In this document: positions 2,148 to 64,000 of the stretch, one piece after another
Numbering within the stretch: the stretch's first letter is position 1
Layout of the letters: every line of letters begins with the position of its first letter
DNA from: a virus
Lineage: Duplodnaviria > Caudoviricetes
Length of the DNA stretch: 64,000 bases
IMG/VR virus record: IMGVR_UViG_3300025413_001239
Reading direction: 5' to 3' (one strand)
Translations under genes and position numbers: made by a program
Notes under the pieces: model-generated
Databases searched by the model: none
What the model saw: only the letters and a program-made list of their open reading frames with translations
Told to the model about the DNA's origin: nothing

Positions 2148-3115
2148 ACGAAACAAAATATAAGTTGAAGTTGGGTGGGTCTAAGCCTACCCAAACTCCA
2201 GCTAAAGAATCCCCAATGCCATCAACCGATGATTTAGATTTCGGTGGTGATACTGAAGAAACTCCTGAAGAAACCCCAGAAGAGACTCCAGACCAAACTC
2301 CAGACGCAGCATCCTCTACTGCACCAGAAAAATCTCAAGCACCAAATCCTTTAGACAAAGAACCATTTGACGCTGGTGTTGAGGCTGATGAAGAATCAGA
2401 CCCCAAAAAATACATTGAACAATTAACTGGAAAGTTAGGTCAATCCCTAAGAACTTACACAAAAGACCAAGGTCAACCAGATTTCGAATTAGAGAAATTT
2501 GCGATTAATTCCTTGCTATCCGCAACTCATACCGCTGAAATGGATGATGAAGATAAAAAAGACATCATTAAAAAAGTTGAATCATCTGGAAAAGGTGATG
2601 ATTTTCAATCAGATGAGGAACCAGCTGAAGAACCATCTGAGGAATCTTCTGAAGATGATGATGATGATAATAACATGTTTGAAGATTTAATGGTTTATGA
2701 AAATGAAAACTTTATGTTGGCTAATCCTAAAAAAAATAATATGTTTCAAGAAGGTTCTAACGATATATTAGATGAAACATGTTGGAAGGGTTATAAGCAA
2801 GTTGGTATGAAGGACAAGAATGGTAAAAAAGTTCCTAATTGTATTAAAGAAAGTGAATCATTAAGTGAAAATGATGATAGATGTACTAGAATTGCTAAAA
2901 GAAAATATGATGTTTGGCCATCAGCTTATGCATCAGGTGCTGTTGTAAAGTGTAGACAAGGAAAAATTTGGAAAAACGTTGATGAAAATTACTTAGATGA
3001 GTTGGATAGTTTAAAAGAAAAATGGTCAGCAAAATATAAAAAAAGCATAGATTGTAATAACCCAAAAGGCTTTAGCCAAAGAGCACATTGTCAAGGTAAG
3101 AAAAAAAATGATTAA
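2123..3115 (+). CDS. Acidic plus Cys-module protein; likely the -1 frame extension of 1182..2147
   Basis: Frame is open from 2123 (KKSLYVKINETKYKLKLGG). The ORF-track start is only a TTG at 2165. C-terminal modules CWKGY...PNC, CTRIAKRKY...VKC, KWSAKYKKSIDC...AHC. Confidence 0.7.
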   Translation, partial: KKSLYVKINETKYKLKLGGSKPTQTPAKESPMPSTDDLDFGGDTEETPEETPEETPDQTPDAASSTAPEKSQAPNPLDKEPFDAGVEADEESDPKKYIEQLTGKLGQSLRTYTKDQGQPDFELEKFAINSLLSATHTAEMDDEDKKDIIKKVESSGKGDDFQSDEEPAEEPSEESSEDDDDDNNMFEDLMVYENENFMLANPKKNNMFQEGSNDILDETCWKGYKQVGMKDKNGKKVPNCIKESESLSENDDRCTRIAKRKYDVWPSAYASGAVVKCRQGKIWKNVDENYLDELDSLKEKWSAKYKKSIDCNNPKGFSQRAHCQGKKKND

Positions 3116-4229
3116 TATGAATGAGGTGAATAAAACTGATTTTTCAAAAGAGAAATCACAAGGATTACATGGTTGGTTTGCTAGACAAGGTGGTTCTGGC
3201 AAATCTAAAGGATGGGTTGATTGTAATACATGTAGAAAAGACCCAGAAACTGGTAAAAAAAAGTGTAAATCATGTGGTAGAAAATCTGGCGAAGAACGTT
3301 CAAAATATCCAGCATGTAGACCAACTCCGTCTGCTTGTGGTACAAGCGGTAAGGGTGAAAAATGGGGTAAAAAAACTAATAATGAATCTAAAAATCAAAA
3401 CACAATGAAAGATTTAAAAACAAAAAATCTAACCAAAATTTCTGAGGGAAATATGGGTGAAAGTAATAACTACATGTTCTTTAACAATCTTAAAACAATA
3501 CATGAATCTATTACTAATTTATTAAAAATGGACCAATCAGCGGTTGATGAAATTTTATCTGATGGTCATGGTTGGGCTTTGGACCACATGGCAACGTCTG
3601 CCGATGATATTGAAGAAGTTTACCATTTTTTAAGTGCTACATTAAGTGGTCAGGATGGTTATAACGGTAACACACCTGATGGTTACAATGATGAATATGG
3701 TTCTGTTGAACTAGTAAACATGAATGAAGCTGAATATAAGGGTAAAGAAGTTAGTCTTGGTAAGCCTTCACATGGTGACGTTAAGAAGTTTAAAGTTTAT
3801 GTTAAAAACGATAAGGGTAATGTTGTTAAGGTTAACTTTGGTGACCCTAACATGGAAATCAAGAGAGATAATCCAGAAAGAAGAAAATCGTTTAGAGCTA
3901 GACATAAGTGTAGCCAAGCGCATGATAGAACAACACCTAAATACTGGTCTTGTAAAATGTGGTCAAGTAAACCAGTTTCTGATATTGTTGGTGAGAATTT
4001 GACTCAATCAAAAAAAAGTGGTATATTTGCAGATATGATTAAAAATAAATTAACAGAAGCATTTAACCCTGAAAGTATGGCAGAACCGTTTATTGAACCA
4101 CCAGTTGTTAAACCTGAAACAAAACCTAGTGTTAAACCTAACGAAACACCTAAACCAAAAAGAAGAGATGCACCATTTTTACCGAATGTTGCACCAGGTG
4201 TACAACCACAACCAAAAGCTAAAAAATAA
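3108..4229 (+). CDS. Modular Cys-rich basic hypothetical protein, candidate internal head polyprotein
   Basis: 373 aa. Modules GLHGWF...WVDCNTC...KYPACRPT and EAEYKG...RRKSFRARHKC...YWSCKMW; Pro-rich tail. Confidence 0.75.
   Translation: MINMNEVNKTDFSKEKSQGLHGWFARQGGSGKSKGWVDCNTCRKDPETGKKKCKSCGRKSGEERSKYPACRPTPSACGTSGKGEKWGKKTNNESKNQNTMKDLKTKNLTKISEGNMGESNNYMFFNNLKTIHESITNLLKMDQSAVDEILSDGHGWALDHMATSADDIEEVYHFLSATLSGQDGYNGNTPDGYNDEYGSVELVNMNEAEYKGKEVSLGKPSHGDVKKFKVYVKNDKGNVVKVNFGDPNMEIKRDNPERRKSFRARHKCSQAHDRTTPKYWSCKMWSSKPVSDIVGENLTQSKKSGIFADMIKNKLTEAFNPESMAEPFIEPPVVKPETKPSVKPNETPKPKRRDAPFLPNVAPGVQPQPKAKK
3998..4029 (+). promoter_or_regulatory. Bacteroidota sigma-A-type promoter inside a CDS
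   Basis: TTTG (3998-4001), 20-nt spacer, TATATTTG (4022-4029); in-frame ATG at 4035. Confidence 0.55.
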
Positions 4230-9024: not shown

Positions 9025-12000
9025 ATGGCTAAACAAAATTTAACAATATTCCAAAAATTGGGTCAAATACTAGGTCCAGAAGGAGTAAAACAAAAACAAC
9101 AATTACCAGCTCAAAATCAACCGCAAAGATACAACATTGGTAAGGATGTCTTATTAAAGACTGATGACAAAAAAGCTTATGAATTAGCTAAACTACAAGC
9201 ACAACAAAATAAGTACTTGGGTCAAGTTTGGAAAAAAGTTGAACACGGACTTTTTCAACAAGCTGTTAACTATGAAACCACACGTATTGGTTCTTATTCT
9301 GATTTTGAATCGATGGAATTTTATCCAGAAATAGCTGCTGCTTTAGACATTATGATGGAAGAATCGACTACACTTAATGGTAATGGTCGTATGGTTAATG
9401 TTTATTCTGATAGTGTTAGGGTTAAGGGTATTATTGAAGACCTTTTATTTAATAGGCTTGATATGCATACATCATTACCAATGTGGACCAGAAATACTCC
9501 AATACGTGAAGATAGTATTATACCATTATTAGATGGTACTGAAATTACTATCAAGGAACTATCTAATAGAGTTAAAAATGGTGAAGAAATATGGTCTTAT
9601 GCAATTCAAGATGTTACCAAGGCAATTGTACCAAGTAAAATAATTTGGTGTGACCTTACTAGAAAGGATAGTGAATTATATCGAGTAACACTTGATGATG
9701 GTTCATATATTGATACAACACCAGACCATGAATATATGCTTAGAGATGGTTCATATAAAAGAGCTGATGAATTAACTGAAGGACAGTCTTTAATGCCTTT
9801 TTATACTAGAAAAAGTGAAAAGAAAAAAGATTGTATTGTAGGTTATGAAAAAATTTATAATCCAAGTACAACTAAATATAAGTTTACTCATTCTTTAGTT
9901 GCACATGAGTTATCAAATTGGAAAAATAGTAAATTTATAGAACAAACCAAAAAAGGTATGACTATAGAAATTACCGATGATTGTTTTGATTATATTTCAA
10001 CTATAATAAAAAATAATGAAAATTATGTTGGTGTAAATAAATTAACTAAATTACTTAGAGCTGATTCTAATTTTATTACGTTGTTTAAAGAAAATTATTC
10101 TTTAAAAAAAGATATTATTAAATCTATTAACCCAACAACATTAACTAAAGTATTATTTAGAAAAACAAATCAGAATTATTTTGATTTTGTTTTATCAATA
10201 AAACCAAGTTTAGTATTAGATAAATCATATATCAAAGCTAAAGCAATTTATTTAGGTAAAACTAAATCAAACGTATTATTAAATCATAAAGTTGTTTCAA
10301 TTATTAAACTTTCAGAGACTTCTGATGTATATTGTTTAGAAGCGGTTGGACCTAATGGCGAACATGATAGACATAATTTTCCAGTGTTAGGTAAAGATGT
10401 AAATGGTTCAGTATCAAGAAGTTCTGGTGTATTTTTAGCCAACTGTAAATACGGTGATAATTTCGTTTATTTAAATATTTCAGATACTAATGGTGTTATA
10501 GGTGCAAAGCAAATGCCTAACTATGAAATGGAACGTAGAGATGGTGGTCTTTTTGATATGATTTCACAAAGAACTGATGAAGATTATAAAACAGATAAAA
10601 CTAAGTATTATTGGAGAGGTCGTGATGTTGAATTTAACTCATGGCAAATAGCACACTTTAGACTTCTTGGTGATGATAGAAGATTACCTTACGGTACATC
10701 GGTGCTAGAAAAAGCTAGAAGAATTTGGAAACAATTATTATTATCTGAAGATGCTATGCTTGTTTATCGTGTTACACGTGCACCTGAGCGTAGAATATAT
10801 AAAATATATGTTGGTAATATTGATGATAAGGACGTTGAAGCATACGTAAATGAAATTGCTAACAGGTTTAAAAGAACCCCAATGGTTGACCCACAAACTG
10901 GGCAAGTTGATTTAAGATATAATCAACTTTCAAATGACCAAGATTACTTTATTCCAGTTAGAAGTGAAGATGCTCCAAGTCCTATCGATACATTACCTGG
11001 TGCTTGTTTATCTTTGGATACGAGGATTCCACTATTAGATGGTAGAATACTTGAACTACAAGAAATTATTTCTGAATGGGATAATGGTAATAAGGACATG
11101 TGGGTTTATTCTGTTGACCCTCAAACTGGTGCATCAACAGTTGGTCCAATCACTTGGGCTGGAGTTACACGTAAAAATACTCAAGTTTTGAAGATAACCC
11201 TTGATAACGGTAAATCAATAACTACAACACCAGACCATAAGTTTGTACATAGAACCAATGGGTTTGTGGAGGCACAAAATCTTGTTATTGGTGATAGTCT
11301 GATGCCGTTTTATACTGATATCGCTAAAATAAAATCAAATTCTAATAATGGTTATCAGAGAATTTGGGATACGGCTACTCAAAAATGGGTTTTTACACAT
11401 AGATTAGTCAAAGAAATTTTATCCAATACTGGGTTAATAAAAGATTTTGAATTTGATACAAAATATATTGGTACTGATAAAAAAATAATACATCATAAGG
11501 ACCATAATAGATTTAATAACGCACCAAACAATTTGGTAATGATGAATGTTGGTGACCATATGAAATATCATCAATCAGTTATTAAAGAAACTATTTGGGC
11601 TAACCCAGAACTTAATAAGGCTAAAATTACACTTGGCGTTAATAAATTCATTTCAAATTTGACTGATGAGGAAAGAGCAATAAGGGCTAAAAAATCAAGA
11701 AATAATTCCGTTACCACAAGAGATAAGGCTAATAAAACGTTTAATGGCAATATTAATAAAGTAGAAATTATTTCAAAAAGAGGTAAGGCTATTGCTGAAG
11801 CAAAGTCAATCCCAGAGTTTAAAGAAAAATTATCTAAGATAGCAGCTAATAATTGGCTAGTTGATGGTTATAAAGAAAGAGTATTCTCAAAAAAACAAAC
11901 ACTTACTTTTTCCGAAAATCTTTATATGATGTTTTTTGAGATGTTTAAACAGCATGGTAAAGCTGATGCTACACTTGCTGAATTAAATCAATCGATTGAG

Positions 12001-13362
12001 TTCATGAACGAATTCACTTCTAGTAATCGAGACATTAGAAGTTCAATTACTAATTTTAATGAATTTACACATAATCATCTTGAAAAGATGTTAAAGAGGA
12101 GAGGATTTAAAAATTATCGTGATTGGTGCAAGGTAACCGCTAAACAACTGGGATACAAGAATGTTAGAGCTTGGAGGTACAGTATAGAAAAAGGCTCTAA
12201 AGTACTTCTATATAATCATAAGATTGTATCAATTGAATGGTTAACTGATTTACAAGATACAGGAACAATCACTGTTGATGGTGAGGAAAAATATCAATCA
12301 ACTCACACATTTGCTTGTGAATCAGGCATTTATGTAAAAAATTCTAATCTAGACCAAATTGCTGATATTGAATACTTACAAAAGAAATTATTTACAGCCT
12401 TAAGGGTACCGAAACCATTCTTAGGTTTTGAAGAAACAACTGGTGATGGTAAGAATTTAGCGTTACAGGATATTCGTTTTTCTAGAACAATCAATAGGAT
12501 TCAACAGGCCATGCTTCAAGAGCTTAATAAGATTGTTATTATACACTTATATTTACTAGGATTTGAAGATGATTTAGATAACTTTACTTTAACACTTAAT
12601 AATCCATCTACACAAGCTGAAATGCTTAAGGTTGAGCATTTACAATTGAAGATGACATTGTTCAAGGATGCTGTATCTGACGCTGGTAATGGCTTTGCTC
12701 CAATGTCAATGACTAGAGCTAAACGAGAAATTCTTGGTTGGGCCGATAATGATATTAAACAAGACCTTCTTGAACAACGTATGGAAAAAGCTGCCGCAGC
12801 TGAATTGGCTAACTCAGCAAATGTTATTAAGCATACTGGTATGTTTGACGTTGTTGATAGACTTTATGGTGATATGAAATTAGCACTTAAGGGTGGTGGA
12901 ACTCCACCAGAAGGTGCTGAAGGTGGTGCTGCTGGTGGTGCTGCTGGTGGTGCCGCTGGCGGTGGAGCTGGTGGCGGCGGTGGATTCGGTGGTGGTGGAA
13001 TTAGCCCAGAAGACTTAGATTTTGGAGCTGAAGGTGGTGAAACGCCAGAAGCTGGTGAGGCTGCTGGTGGTGAGGCTGCTGGTGGTGAAACACCAGCAGC
13101 TGGTGGTGAGGTCGCACCAGAAACGACTGCTGAAGCAATTATTAAAATTGAAAATTTATTAACTGAAAGTAAATCAAAAATTACTAAAAAGTTAAATGAT
13201 AGAACTGAAAAGTATAAAAATAGATTTTTTAATAATTTAATTGATATGGTTGACCATGAGCAAAAACCATTAGATAATGTGAAAATAATTGATAAAAACG
13301 TAAAAATTAATGAAACTGTTAATTCTATGATTAAAGACATTGATGATATGTTAAAAGATTAG
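9025..13362 (+). CDS. Portal protein (T4 gp20-like) containing two inteins; about 684 aa after splicing
   Basis: Portal motifs PYGTSVLEKARRIWKQL, EDAMLVYRVTRAPERRIYKIYVGN, DIEYLQKKLFTALRVPK; position between terL and the protease. Confidence 0.92.
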   Translation: MAKQNLTIFQKLGQILGPEGVKQKQQLPAQNQPQRYNIGKDVLLKTDDKKAYELAKLQAQQNKYLGQVWKKVEHGLFQQAVNYETTRIGSYSDFESMEFYPEIAAALDIMMEESTTLNGNGRMVNVYSDSVRVKGIIEDLLFNRLDMHTSLPMWTRNTPIREDSIIPLLDGTEITIKELSNRVKNGEEIWSYAIQDVTKAIVPSKIIWCDLTRKDSELYRVTLDDGSYIDTTPDHEYMLRDGSYKRADELTEGQSLMPFYTRKSEKKKDCIVGYEKIYNPSTTKYKFTHSLVAHELSNWKNSKFIEQTKKGMTIEITDDCFDYISTIIKNNENYVGVNKLTKLLRADSNFITLFKENYSLKKDIIKSINPTTLTKVLFRKTNQNYFDFVLSIKPSLVLDKSYIKAKAIYLGKTKSNVLLNHKVVSIIKLSETSDVYCLEAVGPNGEHDRHNFPVLGKDVNGSVSRSSGVFLANCKYGDNFVYLNISDTNGVIGAKQMPNYEMERRDGGLFDMISQRTDEDYKTDKTKYYWRGRDVEFNSWQIAHFRLLGDDRRLPYGTSVLEKARRIWKQLLLSEDAMLVYRVTRAPERRIYKIYVGNIDDKDVEAYVNEIANRFKRTPMVDPQTGQVDLRYNQLSNDQDYFIPVRSEDAPSPIDTLPGACLSLDTRIPLLDGRILELQEIISEWDNGNKDMWVYSVDPQTGASTVGPITWAGVTRKNTQVLKITLDNGKSITTTPDHKFVHRTNGFVEAQNLVIGDSLMPFYTDIAKIKSNSNNGYQRIWDTATQKWVFTHRLVKEILSNTGLIKDFEFDTKYIGTDKKIIHHKDHNRFNNAPNNLVMMNVGDHMKYHQSVIKETIWANPELNKAKITLGVNKFISNLTDEERAIRAKKSRNNSVTTRDKANKTFNGNINKVEIISKRGKAIAEAKSIPEFKEKLSKIAANNWLVDGYKERVFSKKQTLTFSENLYMMFFEMFKQHGKADATLAELNQSIEFMNEFTSSNRDIRSSITNFNEFTHNHLEKMLKRRGFKNYRDWCKVTAKQLGYKNVRAWRYSIEKGSKVLLYNHKIVSIEWLTDLQDTGTITVDGEEKYQSTHTFACESGIYVKNSNLDQIADIEYLQKKLFTALRVPKPFLGFEETTGDGKNLALQDIRFSRTINRIQQAMLQELNKIVIIHLYLLGFEDDLDNFTLTLNNPSTQAEMLKVEHLQLKMTLFKDAVSDAGNGFAPMSMTRAKREILGWADNDIKQDLLEQRMEKAAAAELANSANVIKHTGMFDVVDRLYGDMKLALKGGGTPPEGAEGGAAGGAAGGAAGGGAGGGGGFGGGGISPEDLDFGAEGGETPEAGEAAGGEAAGGETPAAGGEVAPETTAEAIIKIENLLTESKSKITKKLNDRTEKYKNRFFNNLIDMVDHEQKPLDNVKIIDKNVKINETVNSMIKDIDDMLKD
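9499..10443 (+). mobile_element. Intein 1 in portal (315 aa): Pro at position 1, class-3-like, endonuclease core missing
   Basis: Block A PIREDSIIPLLDG, block B TTPDH, block F VYCLE...HNF, C-terminus LAN followed by C. Removal restores WTRNT-CKYGD. Confidence 0.85.
11005..12342 (+). mobile_element. Intein 2 in portal (446 aa) with HNH endonuclease
   Basis: Block A CLSLDTRIPLLDG, block B TTPDH, HNH motif IHHKDHNRFNNAPNNL...H, C-terminus VKN followed by S. Removal restores TLPGA-SNLDQI. Confidence 0.92.
12892..13110 (+). repeat. Gly/Ala/Glu low-complexity coding repeat in the portal C-terminal tail
   Basis: Tandem GGTGGTGCTGCT and GCTGCTGGTGGTGAG units encoding GGAA and GGE(A/T)A repeats. Confidence 0.8.
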
Positions 13363-58844: not shown

Positions 58845-59087
58845 TTAACGATTCATAATTTTTATTGCTGATACACCATTTTCATAATCACCTAAATCAT
58901 CCCATAACCCATTACTACTGTTAGGTATAAATTTACCATATTTTTTGTCAATAATATTTAATATCCCATTAAAGGTATCTTCAGTTATTAACTTCTCAAC
59001 ATTTTCTTTGGTTACAGGAATAGGTTCATTTTGATTTTCAATATTATCCATGATTATCATCAATTGAATTAATTCTTTCTTCTTCAC
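58845..59087 (-). CDS. Hypothetical protein
   Basis: 80-aa ORF; start uncertain. Confidence 0.5.
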   Translation of the reverse strand: MKKKELIQLMIIMDNIENQNEPIPVTKENVEKLITEDTFNGILNIIDKKYGKFIPNSSNGLWDDLGDYENGVSAIKIMNR

Positions 59088-59739
59088 TTTTCATTCTACC
59101 AAAAAAACTTTCATGTGTTTCATTTTTATCAACCTTAATCATAACTTCTTTTGCTTTTTCTAATTTAGGTTTTAACCTATTAACATCAAGTGTTGATGGT
59201 TTTTTTATTTGTAAAGCATCTAATTTAACTTTTTGTCTTTTTAATGAATTATAAGCAAAATCGTTCTCTTGTTTTATTAAAATATTTAATTCTGGACCTT
59301 TAATATCCTCTAACGATTCATTATGAATATCAACAATTTCTGGCACATAAAATATTGGTGAAGAGTTACCGTCATAACCATGTAATGTTGCTTCAACGTG
59401 TGGTTTGCGCAACTCATCCATGTAGTTAAGTATTTCCTTAACCCTTTCAGTTTTTATATTCCATTCATTTTTTAATATTAATTCATCTGTATTGGGCTTA
59501 AAAATTTTTACTTGTTCAAAATAAGATGGTAAAGGCTTATTAATCATAACCTTTTTTATAGAATACTGTAAATTCGACTTACGAATTCTTGTAAGTCTTT
59601 CATATTCTTTCATAGTACCTCTTTTACTCTTGATACTAAGATAAACTATCAAGACTTTTAATTTTAAATCTTGAATAAATTCGTTAAATTGTCTTTTAAT
59701 TTTTTGAAATTTCTTTTTCATTTTATTTCTTTTTTTCAT
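59044..59739 (-). CDS. Hypothetical protein
   Basis: 231-aa ORF. Confidence 0.6.
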   Translation of the reverse strand: MKKRNKMKKKFQKIKRQFNEFIQDLKLKVLIVYLSIKSKRGTMKEYERLTRIRKSNLQYSIKKVMINKPLPSYFEQVKIFKPNTDELILKNEWNIKTERVKEILNYMDELRKPHVEATLHGYDGNSSPIFYVPEIVDIHNESLEDIKGPELNILIKQENDFAYNSLKRQKVKLDALQIKKPSTLDVNRLKPKLEKAKEVMIKVDKNETHESFFGRMKSEEERINSIDDNHG

Positions 59740-62133
59740 TTACCAGTTTAAGGTATAGGTTTTTTCTATCTTCAGTTACCTTATCCATAGAATACGTATC
59801 CTTAACTGTGTTATATAAGTTTTCACTAAGTTGTGTTACTAATTCTGGTTGTTGAATTAATTTCTTAATTGCTTTAACCCAATCTTTGGTTTGATGTTTA
59901 CTTGGTTTAATCAAAATACCATTCGCATTAGTATCCCAATTACCACCAAATTGTATAGCGTTAGTCACATCAATTTGATATGGACCAAAATCCTGAGCTA
60001 TAATAGCCTTTTTATGGAATCCAGCTTCGATGACTTTTAATTGACTCTTAACCTCATTAAAAATATTATCTTCAATTGGTGCCAATGATACATCAAATAA
60101 ATTATAATTTGATGCGTATGTACTAATTGGCTTAGTCCAAACTCTTCTATAAGGTTCGTTAGCTACATTAGGATATTCTTCGTTCTTAAACTTCAATAAG
60201 AAATCCTTATACTCTGGACTTACAGTTGAATAGTTATCGGTAAATATTTTTTCATACTGATACCAAACGCTTTCAGTTGGCTTGATGGGTCTTTGAGTTT
60301 GTTGTTTAGTTTGCTCATCAATAATTGTCATAGTACCTCTAAGGTCATATCCACATAGTACAAATTGTACTTTATCTATAAGACCTTCACGATTAATGGT
60401 TCCAACCACATCGTTAATAAGTTCTAAGTCTTTAAGGTGACTATTGCCAATCCACATTGCTTTGCCGTTTCTTCTGACATAGATAATATGATTTTTAACT
60501 TCAACACAATAAACATTACCTTTATAATATCTATTATATTGATTTTCTGTTTTAATTAGAGGGGTATTTTTATTATGCTTACTAGTACTATGATGTTTGG
60601 TAAAATTAACCACCAATGAATCATATTGTGACTTTATTCCTCTTCCTTTAATTTCACTAGTTCGTTTACCTCGATTTGTTATTGTCGCTGAAATACCTAT
60701 TTTTAAAGCAATTTCTTGTAAATTATTTGCTAACGAAGGTGAGCAAGTAAATGCTCTGGTTCTTGTATATTTATTATTTTCAATATGGCCGTCACCTTTA
60801 ATAAACCAATCTAAAAATATTGTTAATTGTCTTGGTGATAAATTTAATATTTCTTCAGGTACAAATTTATCATATGCATTACCAAAATTTGATAAGTATT
60901 CCCATAACATTTTATCAAAAACCCTAACTTGTTTTTTGTCTTTAGTATACGTTGGTTTGAAACCCATTTTAATTAATAATTCATACATATATGATAAATA
61001 CCCATTATCTTTTGTTTGTGCTATACCTACTTGATGTAACCCATTTGTTTTAGTAGTCCACCCTTCAGCCATCCAAAAACCAAAAAATTGTAACCAATTA
61101 TCCATATCGATATTTTTATCATAACCATATTTTTCGGATAATCCATTATAACGTTTTTTTGATATTAATTTATCAATATAGTTTTCGTTTTCTTCAAATT
61201 CAGCGTATTCATTTAGCATTGGTAAAACAAAATATTTTTCTTTTTTACCAACCCATACTGCATCTTTTTTAACATGGAAATTTTTACCATGTATTTTTTC
61301 AGATTGGATTAATTCTAAATCAAGTTTTTTATGTGTTAATGATTTGGCCACAGAGGCATACATATTGTGGTTTGGTGTAACTTCGTATTCAACTAAACCA
61401 TTTTTACAACAATTTAATTCACCTTCAAATGGTTCACATATGTAACCTGTTGGTTTGTGGTACTCTAATTCATTTGTATTTGGATTTAATGTTGCAACCA
61501 TTTCGGTTTGATTTAAAGCGTCAAATCTTTTCCAACCTTCATCAGTCAGAATTTCGGTATCTGGTGTCATACAACTACCACCTAACCAACCAATTCTAAG
61601 TCTCTCAGATGGTTCTACATTTGGTGTAAATTGTTTTTCGGTTGGGTCTACAGCATTTGGAAGTACGAATACGTTTTTATTAAATTTTTTAATTTCATCA
61701 GCAAATATGGGTGTTGTTGTTGTAACATTTCTTGAAATCTTAATGTTATTAAGAATTAACTTATCAAGACCATGATTTTTTATAAGTAAAAAAGCTGGGT
61801 GATGTGGTCCTGGGGACCAATAGTCATCTAAGTCCATTATTGTAACAATACCTAAATTGTCAAGTCTTTCAAGGAGTGCTGGTAATGCGCTATATTCACC
61901 AAGGGTTCTATGATAATGTATAATATCATATTGTTTAAGCCATTCATCATTATCTAATTGTGGTTCATAATCAATATCAATTGAGAACTCATCTGGGTAA
62001 TTTTGTTCTAGGGCAATATGTGGCTTAGAACTTCTAAAGTAGCTTGTCAGCTGACCCCAGTTCTGTCACTAGGTACTACTAATACCTTTACTTTGCGACT
62101 AACTGGGGTCAGATTAATAATGTTTGTTGTCAT
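59723..62133 (-). CDS. GT-B glycosyltransferase with an intein; needs recoding at 62042-62052 to join its N-terminus
   Basis: Main frame is open 62065 to 59723 (SYFRSSKPH...MDLDDYW...IGWLGG...KSQLKVIEAG), with no ATG, GTG or TTG before 61837. The N-terminal 28 codons (62133-62050) lie in another frame. Confidence 0.8.
60443..61573 (-). mobile_element. LAGLIDADG intein (377 aa) in the glycosyltransferase
   Basis: WLGGS then CMTPDTEILT; VTPNH; FFGFWMAEG; WFIKGDG; VYCVEV..H; IGN followed by SHLKD. Confidence 0.92.
62041..62112 (-). other. Candidate ribosomal bypass or frameshift element: 62-nt hairpin plus AGC-UGA-CA-AGC
   Basis: 12-bp perfect inverted repeat (62051-62062 / 62101-62112) with inner stems; matched Ser codons at 62052-50 and 62044-42 flank a stop. 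Confidence 0.55.
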
Positions 62134-63003
62134 TTTGTGAAATTAATTCTCTTATTATATTTTTATTTTTTTTGTAATCCGATTCCCAGATTACAATACA
62201 ATTATAATTATATTTTTTAGCTAAGTCAAGCTTATTCTTATCATATTCCCATATTTCTTTAGCTGTTTTACTCTTTTTTTTATTATAATACATTGAATCA
62301 TATTTTTTAGGGTTACAATGCCAGTAATCACCATTATACTCAATAAGTAAATTTAGCTCAGGAATATAAATATCAAAAATTTTTGATTCAATAATAAAAT
62401 TAGGTTCGACTTTTAAATTTATGCTCTCAAGATATTTAATAATTTCAAACTCTGGTTTTGAGCGATTAAAAGATTTTAACTCTCCGTTAGCAATTCTATT
62501 TTTCATAAGAATACTTAACTTGGTTCTAGTCTCTTCCATTTTACCACTTTTCCAACGTTCTTTAGCCATAATACTAAACATGTCTTTGTATTCTTGTTTA
62601 GACATATGGTCACTAGTTTTAACACCAATTTTTTTATCTGAAATTGTTTTTTTTGTAGTATTTGAATGAGTTTTTTTAAAAAACGGATTCCCCCCCCAAC
62701 TTGTTTTTTTAAAGAACATTTTTTACATTCATGTTTATTTTTTAAATTTCTATTTAGTAAAGATTTATTGTTTACTGAAAATTTTATTTTTTTATTACAT
62801 GTAATACAAGTATAATGCCCACACCACATATTACCCTCTTGCCAAAAATTTTTATAGAAAGACTCGCCAAGCAATCTATTTCTAGTTAAATTTTTGTCTT
62901 TTAATATTTTTAAAACTTGATTTTTTGTAATGTTAGGTATTAATTTACATATTTTAGTTGACCCAATACCGCTTAAATATAATTCAATTATTTTTTCTTC
63001 CAT
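62114..63003 (-). CDS. Homing endonuclease (NUMOD3 plus Vsr/PD-(D/E)XK domain) split by a G8 tract
   Basis: ORFs 62515..63003 and 62114..62719 join at C8 (62690-62697); FDIYIPELNLLIEYNGDYWHC. Confidence 0.75.
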
Positions 63004-63006
63004 ATA

Positions 63007-63102
63007 TTATAAATATACAGAAAATAAAAATAAGTCTAAAAAGCTAACCCCAGTTCTGTCTGATGCTACTACTAAAACTTTAATTTTTTTGTTTTTTGTC
63101 AT
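63007..63102 (-). pseudogene. Orphaned original 5' end of the glycosyltransferase (31 aa)
   Basis: MTKNKKIKVLVVASDRTGVS-FLDLF...; homology ends exactly at the Ser AGC codon (63045-63043). Confidence 0.75.
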
Positions 63103-63132
63103 TATTTTTATTTTTAAAACGTTATTTTGATT

Positions 63133-63160
63133 AATATACTAAACATAAAATATTAGTCAA
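63133..63160 (-). promoter_or_regulatory. Host-sigma promoter for the glycosyltransferase operon
   Basis: TTGACT-N16-TATATT, directly after a terminator. Confidence 0.5.
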
Positions 63161-63161
63161 T

Positions 63162-63190
63162 AAAAAAGGCCCTATAAGGGCCTTTTTTTT
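63162..63190 (-). terminator. Rho-independent terminator (symmetric)
   Basis: AAAAAAGGCCC-tataa-GGGCCTTTTTT. Confidence 0.85.
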
Positions 63191-63208
63191 ATTATAAATA
63201 ATTTTAAT

Positions 63209-63856
63209 TTAAATAGATTTTCTCTTTGGTGTTACTTTTGGTGTAATTTTACCTTCTTTAATAAGGGTTGTTATTGTAGCCTTTACGGTTTCTTGTGTAA
63301 CCATTTTATTATAGCTTTTAGTAAAGTACTCAAGAAGTTTTTTCTCAACCATACTATTAACCATTTCATTTAATTGAGATTTGCTAACTGTAATTGTGTC
63401 ACCTTGATTAACTGGTCTTTTGATATTTTCACTTAATTGTTGTTTAGAACCCTTTAATGGTATACCAGCAACTTTAGCAATATCTTCAGCTGTAAATTTG
63501 GATGGTGGTGCTGCAAATTTTGGAACTCTTTTTTCCATCATTACTTTTTTAATACTATCTGGTAATTTAGAATTCATAACTTGTTCATCACTATAATTAT
63601 AAACGTTTGATGGTCCAGAAGGTACGTAATTGTCAAAACTCATTTCTCGTTCATCACTTTCGCTATACATTTCAGCTGGTCTTGATGATTGCCTTTTTGG
63701 TGGTGTTTCAACATAATCAAAATTATCTTCGTAACTTTCTTGAATTTGACCGCTTTGTTTTTTAGGGTTTTCTTTTTCTACTTTATTCATTACAGCAGCA
63801 GCTTTACCTAAAATACTACCTAACCTACTAAGGTCTACTGGTGGTGGTGTTGTCAT
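63209..63856 (-). CDS. Hypothetical protein
   Basis: 215-aa ORF followed by a terminator. Confidence 0.75.
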   Translation of the reverse strand: MTTPPPVDLSRLGSILGKAAAVMNKVEKENPKKQSGQIQESYEDNFDYVETPPKRQSSRPAEMYSESDEREMSFDNYVPSGPSNVYNYSDEQVMNSKLPDSIKKVMMEKRVPKFAAPPSKFTAEDIAKVAGIPLKGSKQQLSENIKRPVNQGDTITVSKSQLNEMVNSMVEKKLLEYFTKSYNKMVTQETVKATITTLIKEGKITPKVTPKRKSI

Positions 63857-64000
63857 TTGTGTTTGTTTTTAAGTTGTTATTATTTTTTTGTTTCAACTTT
63901 TGTTGTAAACGTTTTTTTAATTCTTTTTCTTTTTCAATCTTAGCACGAAGTTTTTCTTGTCTAGCTTGTTGTTCTTTTTCTTTTTTTGCTAAATAAGCTT
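63828..64000 (-). CDS. 3' end of a coiled-coil protein truncated by the window edge
   Basis: Open frame AYLAKKEKEQQARQEKLRAK... to TAG at 63828-63830. Confidence 0.5.
   Translation of the reverse strand, partial: AYLAKKEKEQQARQEKLRAKIEKEKELKKRLQQKLKQKNNNNLKTNTNDNTTTSRP

Follow-up and report, generated by a model that had tools for sequence, protein, structure and literature searches.

We analysed a 64,000-nucleotide stretch of tailed-phage DNA (IMG/VR record IMGVR_UViG_3300025413_001239; hereafter the window), in which the first 20 codons of a glycosyltransferase gene appear to have been replaced by a cassette made up of a gene for a Vsr-like homing endonuclease and a short module (leader, copy of the host N-terminus, stop codon and spacer). 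The module ends at a stop codon placed directly behind a serine codon, and the body of the gene begins out of register behind a second, matching serine codon. From a comparison of 44 versions of this arrangement we consider it likely (at a probability of roughly 0.7) that ribosomes cross the gap by programmed translational bypassing, brought in by a mobile endonuclease cassette, analogous to mobA/gene 60 of phage T4 and independent of it.

The window belongs to a large AT-rich tailed phage. Its genes include those for terminase, portal and major head protein, and it is rich in inteins and endonuclease genes. The glycosyltransferase locus is laid out as follows, with the minus strand marked (-).

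63162-63188 (-), bidirectional terminator hairpin of the upstream gene, from a consensus scan
63160-63133 (-), sigma-70-like promoter match TTGACT-16-TATATT ahead of the orphan start, from a consensus scan
63102-63007 (-), orphaned original 5' end of the glycosyltransferase gene, MTKNKKIKVLVVASDRTGVS (63102-63043) and then unrelated codons to a stop
63003-62114 (-), free-standing homing endonuclease gene with an N-terminal helix-turn-helix (HTH), a Zn-finger/NUMOD3 region and a C-terminal Vsr-like (EDxHD-type) nuclease, from profile and fold searches
62133-62050 (-), cassette-borne replacement open reading frame (ORF) with ATG 62133, leader MTTNIINLTPVSRK, host N-terminus copy VKVLVVPSDRTGVS and take-off codon AGC at 62052-62050
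62110-62053 (-), three-tier RNA hairpin of 58 nucleotides (nt), lower stem 62110-62101 with 62062-62053, extendable to 62112/62051
62049-62042 (-), coding gap made of TGA 62049-62047, spacer CA 62046-62045 and landing codon AGC 62044-62042
62041-59723 (-), GT-B (GT4-like) glycosyltransferase body, from YFRSSKPH... to the stop at 59725-59723, intact, 772 codons
61573-60443 (-), LAGLIDADG intein of 377 amino acids, between GGS and SHLKD in the glycosyltransferase body

An earlier interpretation made from the letters alone (the sequence-only reading) had held that an endonuclease cassette cut off the original N-terminus at a Ser codon and supplied a replacement start overlapping the endonuclease 3' end. 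The cut is borne out: the homology of the orphan to the gene ends just past Ser codon 63045-63043, and the orphan aligns with uninterrupted (plain) alleles up to that codon and possibly for about 10 nt more (AGCTTTTT-AGA). Some 40 nt separate it from the endonuclease ATG at 63003. The overlap holds too, with ATG 62133 lying 17-19 nt inside the endonuclease 3' end (stop codon 62116-62114); the second N-terminus reads KVLVVPSDRTGVS from this ATG, and the ORF that it opens is given as MTTNIINLTPVSRKVKVLVVPSDRTGVS. A copy of the N-terminus is indeed supplied, but it is out of frame with the remainder of the gene, a point that the earlier reading missed: AGC is followed by TGA, and the body frame resumes at TAC 62041 after the second AGC, at an offset of 8 nt. 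With a stop codon at its end and the body out of register, the replacement start cannot yield the protein by ordinary translation. This stop, and the gap with matched codons behind a conserved hairpin, form the key feature of the locus and had been overlooked altogether.

A search of IMG/VR with the glycosyltransferase N-domain returned 206 relatives, of which 80 were taken into the comparison. Most of the 80 are uninterrupted and begin with M(K)KIKVLVVPSDRTGV(S/G)(Y/F/K)FRS..., and 12 (9 distinct) have the structure seen in the window. With pattern searches and an endonuclease-protein search added, 44 distinct module versions were collected from IMG/VR phage contigs, so that chance does not account for the arrangement. 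Searched by blastn, 50,697 phage records gave no match to the region, and tblastn of the N-domain found only glycosyltransferases of about 35% identity (phi92-like, Campylobacter and huge phages), so that no cultured relative with the module emerged.

The 44 versions follow one order: ATG, 6-9 leader codons, a copy of (K)VLVVPSDRTGV, a Ser or Gly take-off codon, a stop, 0-7 bases, the landing codon and the body. The replacement ORF has 26-29 codons in 44/44, and the stop stands immediately after the take-off codon in 44/44 (TGA in 24, TAA in 19, TAG in 1). Take-off and landing codons share their first two bases in 43 of the 44 modules, and in 36 of the 44 both are readable by the same tRNA (GGY/GGY or AGY/AGY), as with AGC...AGC in the window. 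With the take-off codon joined to the landing site, every module gives exactly the plain-allele protein (GVS|YFRSS in the window, DRTGVSYFRST in a plain allele). Three marks of a bypass, namely same-tRNA codons, a stop in the A site and a colinear product after joining, are in place.

The distance between the two codons is variable. The offset is 6 nt in 24 versions, 8 nt in 5, 11 nt in 4, 5 nt in 3, 7 nt in 3 and 12 nt in 2, with single versions at 9, 10 and 13 nt; 17/44 modules are out of frame and all three frames are represented. Because the offsets span 5-13 nt and so many are out of frame, no single frameshift or readthrough event fits the family. In the three 5-nt versions the landing codon takes the last base of the stop (AGC-TG[A-GC], AGT-TG[A-GC] and GGT-TA[G-GT]), and the sole TAG in the family belongs to the version whose landing GGT needs the G. 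Codon choice at take-off is restricted to AGC/AGT (9/9 Ser) or GGT/GGC (35/35 Gly), whereas the same position in 66 plain alleles has TCN in 20/30 Ser and GGR in 22/35 Gly codons (Fisher p 4e-4 for Ser and 3e-9 for Gly, from sequences that are not independent). The upstream Gly codon is GGG in 22/22 modules and the Asp codon GAC in 22/22; both are mixed in plain alleles.

A combination of conventional recoding events, with readthrough in the 6-, 9- and 12-nt versions and +1 or -1 frameshifting near the stop in the rest, would need no hop. The offsets lend it something, 27 of the 44 being multiples of three, and stop codons are known as 'shifty' sites; just 5' of the stop there is a Shine-Dalgarno-like GGGG(U) run, which recalls the prfB +1 site. 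Even so, we consider this combination quite unlikely. AGC or GGY followed by U allows no tRNA re-pairing at +1 or -1, further stops lie in the intermediate frames of the 8- and 11-nt versions (the +1 frame of the window reads GAC AAG CUA CUU UAG), readthrough would insert 2-4 residues in the beta1-alpha1 loop, and several unrelated mechanisms would have had to evolve in one homologous element. A suppressor tRNA or an alternative genetic code was also considered and rejected: the window has no tRNA gene, the ORFs nearby terminate as expected with table 11, and TGA, TAA and TAG are each found in modules.

An internal start for the body was discarded as well, since no ATG, GTG or TTG occurs in the body frame at or before the second codon in 42/45 modules; in the window, the long glycosyltransferase frame opens no earlier than 62065 and has no such codon for 68 codons. 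The same scarcity of starts speaks against a gene in pieces, in which a 28-residue peptide and a body produced by reinitiation would be made separately and associate non-covalently. Phage genes split by free-standing endonucleases into two functional polypeptides are indeed known (nrdA in Aeh1; T4 genes 39/60), and here the stop codon would terminate the first of them. A ribosome-binding motif is not evident, however, and the matched codons and variable offsets would be left without a role, which makes such a split very unlikely in our judgement.

The protein itself also argues against a free-standing body. An AlphaFold model of a plain allele (L004; predicted local distance difference test, pLDDT, 89.8) opens with a strand (E4-9) and a helix (H15-31), and its Foldseek matches are the GT4 enzymes GlgM, PglA, MshA and BshA (E 1e-13 to 1e-11); the Pfam match to Glyco_transf_4 is weak (E 0.003, below cutoff). 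Taken together, AlphaFold and Foldseek give a GT-B fold with two Rossmann-like domains and an N-terminal beta1, Gly-rich loop and alpha1. The 20-residue segment absent from the body makes up the first strand (beta-1) of the Rossmann domain and the loop leading to helix alpha-1, so that a body alone would not be expected to fold.

All complete bodies are intact, with a frameshift or stop in 0/44 versions and lengths of 377-423 codons, or about 770 with an intein. Within the all-module clade, omega is 0.07-0.24. It could be argued that the cassette simply inactivates a dispensable or redundant glycosyltransferase, and that the bodies look intact because a selfish element has invaded recently and repeatedly. 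The modules are indeed mobile. Module-bearing genes are scattered on the host-gene tree, with at least 12 changes; identity profiles are mosaic, and the module stands out as a sharp peak far more conserved than its flanks, which argues that modules move horizontally. They are near-identical between phages whose bodies differ at saturated synonymous sites. Insertions can also be very recent, as two relatives (L015 and L017) have flanks 96% identical and differ almost only by the module, within the first ~60 nt. Other glycosyltransferase genes lie nearby in the phage. We nonetheless regard inactivation as unlikely: besides the intact bodies, a knockout needs no matched landing codon, precise stop, AGY/GGY restriction, compensated hairpin or G-supplying TAG, and modules that have neither endonuclease nor orphan (L015, L036, L058, L063 and L082 among them) persist in several lineages. 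In the first 22 modules examined, the endonuclease gene was present in 11, reduced to a 3' remnant in 2 and absent from 9, the module being kept throughout; at least 9 of these versions have neither endonuclease nor orphan. Where present, the endonuclease gene always ends on or just past the module ATG.

The hairpin (~60 nt) was found in every module and in no plain allele. Its 3' strand is formed by the DRTGV codons and ends at the take-off codon, and the leader DNA is the reverse complement of those codons. In the window it folds at -32.7 kcal/mol (z -4.65); across the modules the folds average -30.0±2.9 kcal/mol, against -9.3±3.5 kcal/mol for the equivalent 84 nt of 52 plain alleles. For this analysis we used per-sequence folds anchored on the take-off codon and a covariance-model alignment. 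These replaced RNAalifold on a plain MAFFT alignment, in which the lack of register between the two subfamilies led to a poor consensus of 10 pairs (-7.6 kcal/mol). The covariance model recovered all 44 modules at 46-104 bits and plain alleles only faintly, at 24-26 bits.

When all modules are aligned to the covariance model, both partners have changed in 11 of the 22 pairs. The score for covariation is 0.198, compared with 0.122±0.007 after shuffling (0/500 reach it) and 0.055-0.087 with the partners slid. The sites that covary are silent positions in the Thr/Ser, Val and Arg codons, together with base 1 of the take-off codon. In the upper stem of L001, Pro-to-Ala and Val-to-Leu changes are compensatory, and the leader peptides of the two subfamilies differ (TPVGRK vs SPLNGRE) with the pairing kept. 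Since pairing survives both amino-acid-changing compensations and divergent leaders, selection acts on the RNA and not on the leader peptide; the frequent G-U pairs indicate that it is the sense RNA that folds. Within the gap there is no conserved stem-loop, only a 4-base-pair AGCU/AGCU mini-hairpin in some versions.

A strong conserved RNA structure abutting the gap would also suit repair at the RNA level, with either the 8 nt or the 1001 nt from the orphan AGC to the landing AGC removed by splicing or by cleavage and ligation. Removing 63042-62042 (equivalently 63045-62045) restores the plain allele exactly, and Vsr-like endonucleases are known inside group I introns (PMC2677866). The sequence-only reading had considered the flanks too short for a group I ribozyme, and our results agree: an Rfam scan of 59000-64000 at E<=1 returned no intron or ribozyme, only weak chance matches on the terminator, and about 40 and 70 nt flank the endonuclease ORF. 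A group I intron would have a P3-P9 ribozyme core and two exons. Most relatives are without the orphan, hence without a 5' exon, and those that have neither endonuclease nor orphan show that splicing cannot explain the family. RNA-level repair further needs neither an A-site stop nor tRNA-matched codons, and we know of no enzyme that excises 5-13 nt. On these grounds it seems extremely improbable. Relatives without an endonuclease carry the cassette copy only, with no duplication; a duplication in such relatives would have spoken against the sequence-only reading. The proposal of that reading that an endonuclease cassette bringing its own N-terminus invaded the 5' end without an intron gains support from the lack of a ribozyme and from the exon-less relatives, as well as from the GIY-YIG layout and the distant endonuclease relatives described below.

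In the bypassing model, translation would start at the cassette ATG 62133 and read 28 codons to the Ser codon AGC, which brings UGA into the A site. In place of termination, peptidyl-tRNA-Ser(GCU) would leave AGC, the mRNA would slip by 8 nt, and the tRNA would re-pair at the next AGC with decoding continued from UAC. The product, ...DRTGVS-YFRSS..., would be colinear with the uninterrupted homologues. The 58-nt hairpin would probably drive or bias the forward slip by re-zipping behind the ribosome, where closure of the lower stem could pull the mRNA forward; such a pull echoes the proposal of Wills et al. (10.1101/2024.12.09.627546). The sequence comparison itself shows the anatomy, the family-wide rules, the RNA covariation, the intact bodies and the mobile module; from these we infer the hop with its efficiency, the part played by the hairpin and the cleavage site.

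The gap is also placed where the endonuclease would be expected to cut, in the conserved GV(S/G)|(Y/F/K)FRS coding sequence. The orphan is kept only in the window and in L047/L087, and these two independent orphans break 1-4 codons past the Ser/Gly codon (in L047/L087 one codon later than in the window), which suggests a cleavage or insertion site at the gap position. A gap at this site would make cassette-bearing genomes immune to cleavage and leave the protein unchanged. With somewhat less confidence than in the bypass as such, we believe that the modules constitute a second natural bypassing family, evolved independently, in which hairpin re-zipping and an A-site stop would move the peptidyl-tRNA 5-13 nt to a matched codon, so that a Vsr-like endonuclease would break its own target with no change to the host protein.

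Several observations weigh against bypassing. The codon match has exceptions, namely L121 (AGT, TAA, then GGC; 2369-2461), L082 (AGC...AGA; 3908-4008) and six modules with GGY...GGA; these mismatched modules could be decaying copies, or could show how much mismatch landing tolerates. The landing codon is simply the host's own Ser or Gly codon, and since the take-off codon is separated from it by 2-10 nt and the two would be inherited together, the match is partly linkage and the apparent co-variation is inflated. With so many offsets divisible by three, in-frame versions could instead use stop-codon readthrough. Much of the purifying selection on the body may pre-date the arrival of the module, which makes omega weaker evidence than it looks; we had taken the value for the all-module clade as proof of expression and downgraded it after seeing the mosaic identity profiles. 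Finally, the copy in the window is possibly an ageing element, as its endonuclease is frameshifted.

Where the sequence-only reading saw a single endonuclease gene, the gene does occupy 63003-62114, but as two overlapping frames (63003-62515 and 62719-62114); alignment with intact relatives places the break in a run of eight G (62697-62690). One G more or two fewer in this run would restore QVGG(G)NPFFKKTH as in the relatives, and the break could reflect pseudogenisation, a sequencing error or slippage. Pfam gave no match for the two window ORFs, and phmmer with the intact 305-residue endonuclease of L001 against the PDB gave only a weak resolvase HTH, so profile and fold searches were needed to place the enzyme. 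Profile searches matched PHROG homing endonuclease families and an I-TevI-like Zn finger/NUMOD3 (E 4e-4); the L001 protein has this region together with an HTH and a C-terminal nuclease. The best Foldseek match was 3r3p (catalytic domain of I-Bth0305I; TM score 0.71-0.73, 21-25% identity), followed by Vsr itself (1vsr), at E 2e-3 and with a model pLDDT of 73. The motif IEYxGDYWHCNP is invariant in 10/10 endonuclease sequences, and alignment and Foldseek agree on a Vsr-type fold with conserved acidic and His residues. Judged by these features, the endonuclease is a member of the Vsr-like family of Dassa et al. 2009 (PMC2677866). Like those EDxHD enzymes (I-Bth0305I, 3r3p), it has the catalytic fold with the E..D..H motif and a modular DNA-binding region with NUMOD3 at its N-terminal end, and its gene stands free in or beside phage genes. 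The published members lie between split-intein halves, in group I introns or in a gene that they split; none is reported with a re-supplied N-terminus and a coding gap.

Directly ahead of the same glycosyltransferase gene, and overlapping its ATG, lie endonuclease relatives of 33-40% identity at loci where the N-terminus is uninterrupted and has neither leader hairpin nor stop (L159, L160, L164-L167, L171, L173, L174, L181, L183-L187 and L193). Going by this arrangement, it is possible that these loci represent the ancestral state of the cassette. Since such distant relatives precede an uninterrupted copy, the association of the endonuclease with the 5' end of the gene is older than the gap. 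In L001, the endonuclease comes directly after a terminator and promoter. The L047 orphan (2950-3000) ends in GVGY, followed by TGATAA, a terminator-like hairpin (AAGTCAACC-ATAA-GGTTGACTT) with a T run, and then the endonuclease gene; its Gly codon is the plain-allele GGT and not the GGG of the cassette.

A parallel layout with a different nuclease is present elsewhere in the window, at 51542-49589 (-), where an orphan, a GIY-YIG endonuclease and a re-supplied start follow one another.

51542-51324 (-), orphan N-terminus of 72 amino acids
51315-50548 (-), GIY-YIG endonuclease gene
50545-49589 (-), full gene

The first ~65 residues of this full gene are a diverged in-frame copy of the orphan, with no stop or gap.

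To our knowledge, apart from the byps of yeast mitochondria, essentially a single phage element, T4 gene 60 with its homologues, is known to show efficient programmed bypassing. The coding gap of T4 gene 60 is reportedly carried by the MobA homing-endonuclease element (Huang 1988; Bonocora 2011; Manning & Atkins 2022), and the origin and purpose of its bypass are still debated. Both the T4 element and the one described here are mobile endonuclease cassettes in a conserved phage gene, with a diverged copy of a host segment and a start codon; both have an untranslated gap bounded by same-tRNA codons with a stop right after the take-off codon, and in both the bypass is kept after endonuclease decay. 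Protection from self-cleavage by the gap was shown in T4 and would apply by analogy to the glycosyltransferase cassette. The host gene is a GT4 glycosyltransferase here and topoisomerase II in T4, the nuclease Vsr-like/EDxHD here and the HNH enzyme MobA in T4, and the gap 5-13 nt here and about 50 nt in T4 gene 60. Unlike T4 gene 60, the module has neither a take-off stem-loop within its gap nor a Shine-Dalgarno sequence there; its main RNA element is the conserved 5' hairpin that ends at the take-off codon, whereas the 5' stem-loop of the gene 60 family is not conserved. Take-off is from Ser AGY or Gly GGY here and from Gly GGA or Asp in the gene 60 family. Descent from T4 MobA/gene 60 would give an insertion in the Toprim domain of the topoisomerase II large subunit, with conserved tails and a gap of about 50 nt; neither the host gene nor the 8-nt gap here agrees with this, a separation made by description and without direct comparison to gene 60 sequences.

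In E. coli reporters, ribosomes are reported to hop over stops by +5/+6 nt or a few more, from a codon with a stop behind it to a matching codon (Weiss et al. 1987; Herr, Atkins & Gesteland 2000; cited in PMC7026636). Those hops have low efficiency and occur in synthetic or chance contexts, whereas the element here is natural and conserved, with a dedicated hairpin and an apparently functional gene. The modules agree with the signals described for gene 60, namely matched codons with wobble tolerance, an A-site stop, a host-derived copied segment and retention after endonuclease loss (PMC7026636; 10.1101/2022.08.31.505936). Some metagenomic gene 60 cassettes carry VSR nucleases (10.1101/2022.08.31.505936); according to Manning & Atkins 2022 (10.1101/2022.08.31.505936), all cases are in Topo2L and the cassette 'remains unique'. 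The byps of Magnusiomyces capitatus mitochondria (Lang et al. 2014, in PMC7026636) are 27-55 nt inserts with a take-off hairpin. As far as that summary goes, they resemble the modules in being many natural gaps with matched take-off and landing codons and wobble or near-match tolerance, and differ in lying in mitochondrial genes, unlinked to endonuclease genes. MobE in nrdA of Aeh1 and the T4 genes 39/60, cases of split genes with added tails, are likewise homes of endonucleases without intron or intein; there, two polypeptides reassemble, whereas here the second piece has no start codon and is apparently joined by translation. A full-text literature search found no paper on a glycosyltransferase bypass or on one across so short a gap.

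If the bypass is real, the coupling of an endonuclease to a coding gap would be a recurrent evolutionary solution and not a one-off, in a system that differs by its gene, by its gaps of 5-13 nt and by a differently placed RNA element under selection. It would then allow a direct test of whether mRNA folding on exit from the ribosome drives forward sliding, for which the natural variants, at least 44 of them, are a ready-made mutational series. It would also be a warning for annotation, as such genes would not be pseudogenes although gene callers truncate them or call them broken. The locus documents a route, without intron or intein, by which endonucleases enter the 5' ends of conserved phage genes.

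The intein of the glycosyltransferase (61573-60443) ends in Gly-Asn and not in the usual His-Asn. Its insertion point, GGS|C...N|SH, is occupied in many relatives, and some have two inserts (L002 and L012, with bodies of about 1140 amino acids). The promoter scan gave 10 matches against 8.9 expected from shuffles, hence no enrichment. The best sigma-70-like match of the region, TTGACT-17-TATAAT (11/12), lies at 62229-62201 (-) within the endonuclease 3' end, some 70 nt ahead of the module ATG. As a possible internal promoter for the glycosyltransferase it is noted as a lead only. At 53454-53188 (-), an ORF of 88 amino acids beginning MITVVYCTRES resembles the start of an adjacent two-domain glycosyltransferase (53194-51542, MVTVVCSSQHS), and its remainder is HTH-like; the ORF is possibly a further 5' end left orphaned, together with the remnant of an endonuclease. 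An internal region of the portal gene (9025-13362, 1445 amino acids) matches HNH endonuclease families and is probably an intein or another inserted element.

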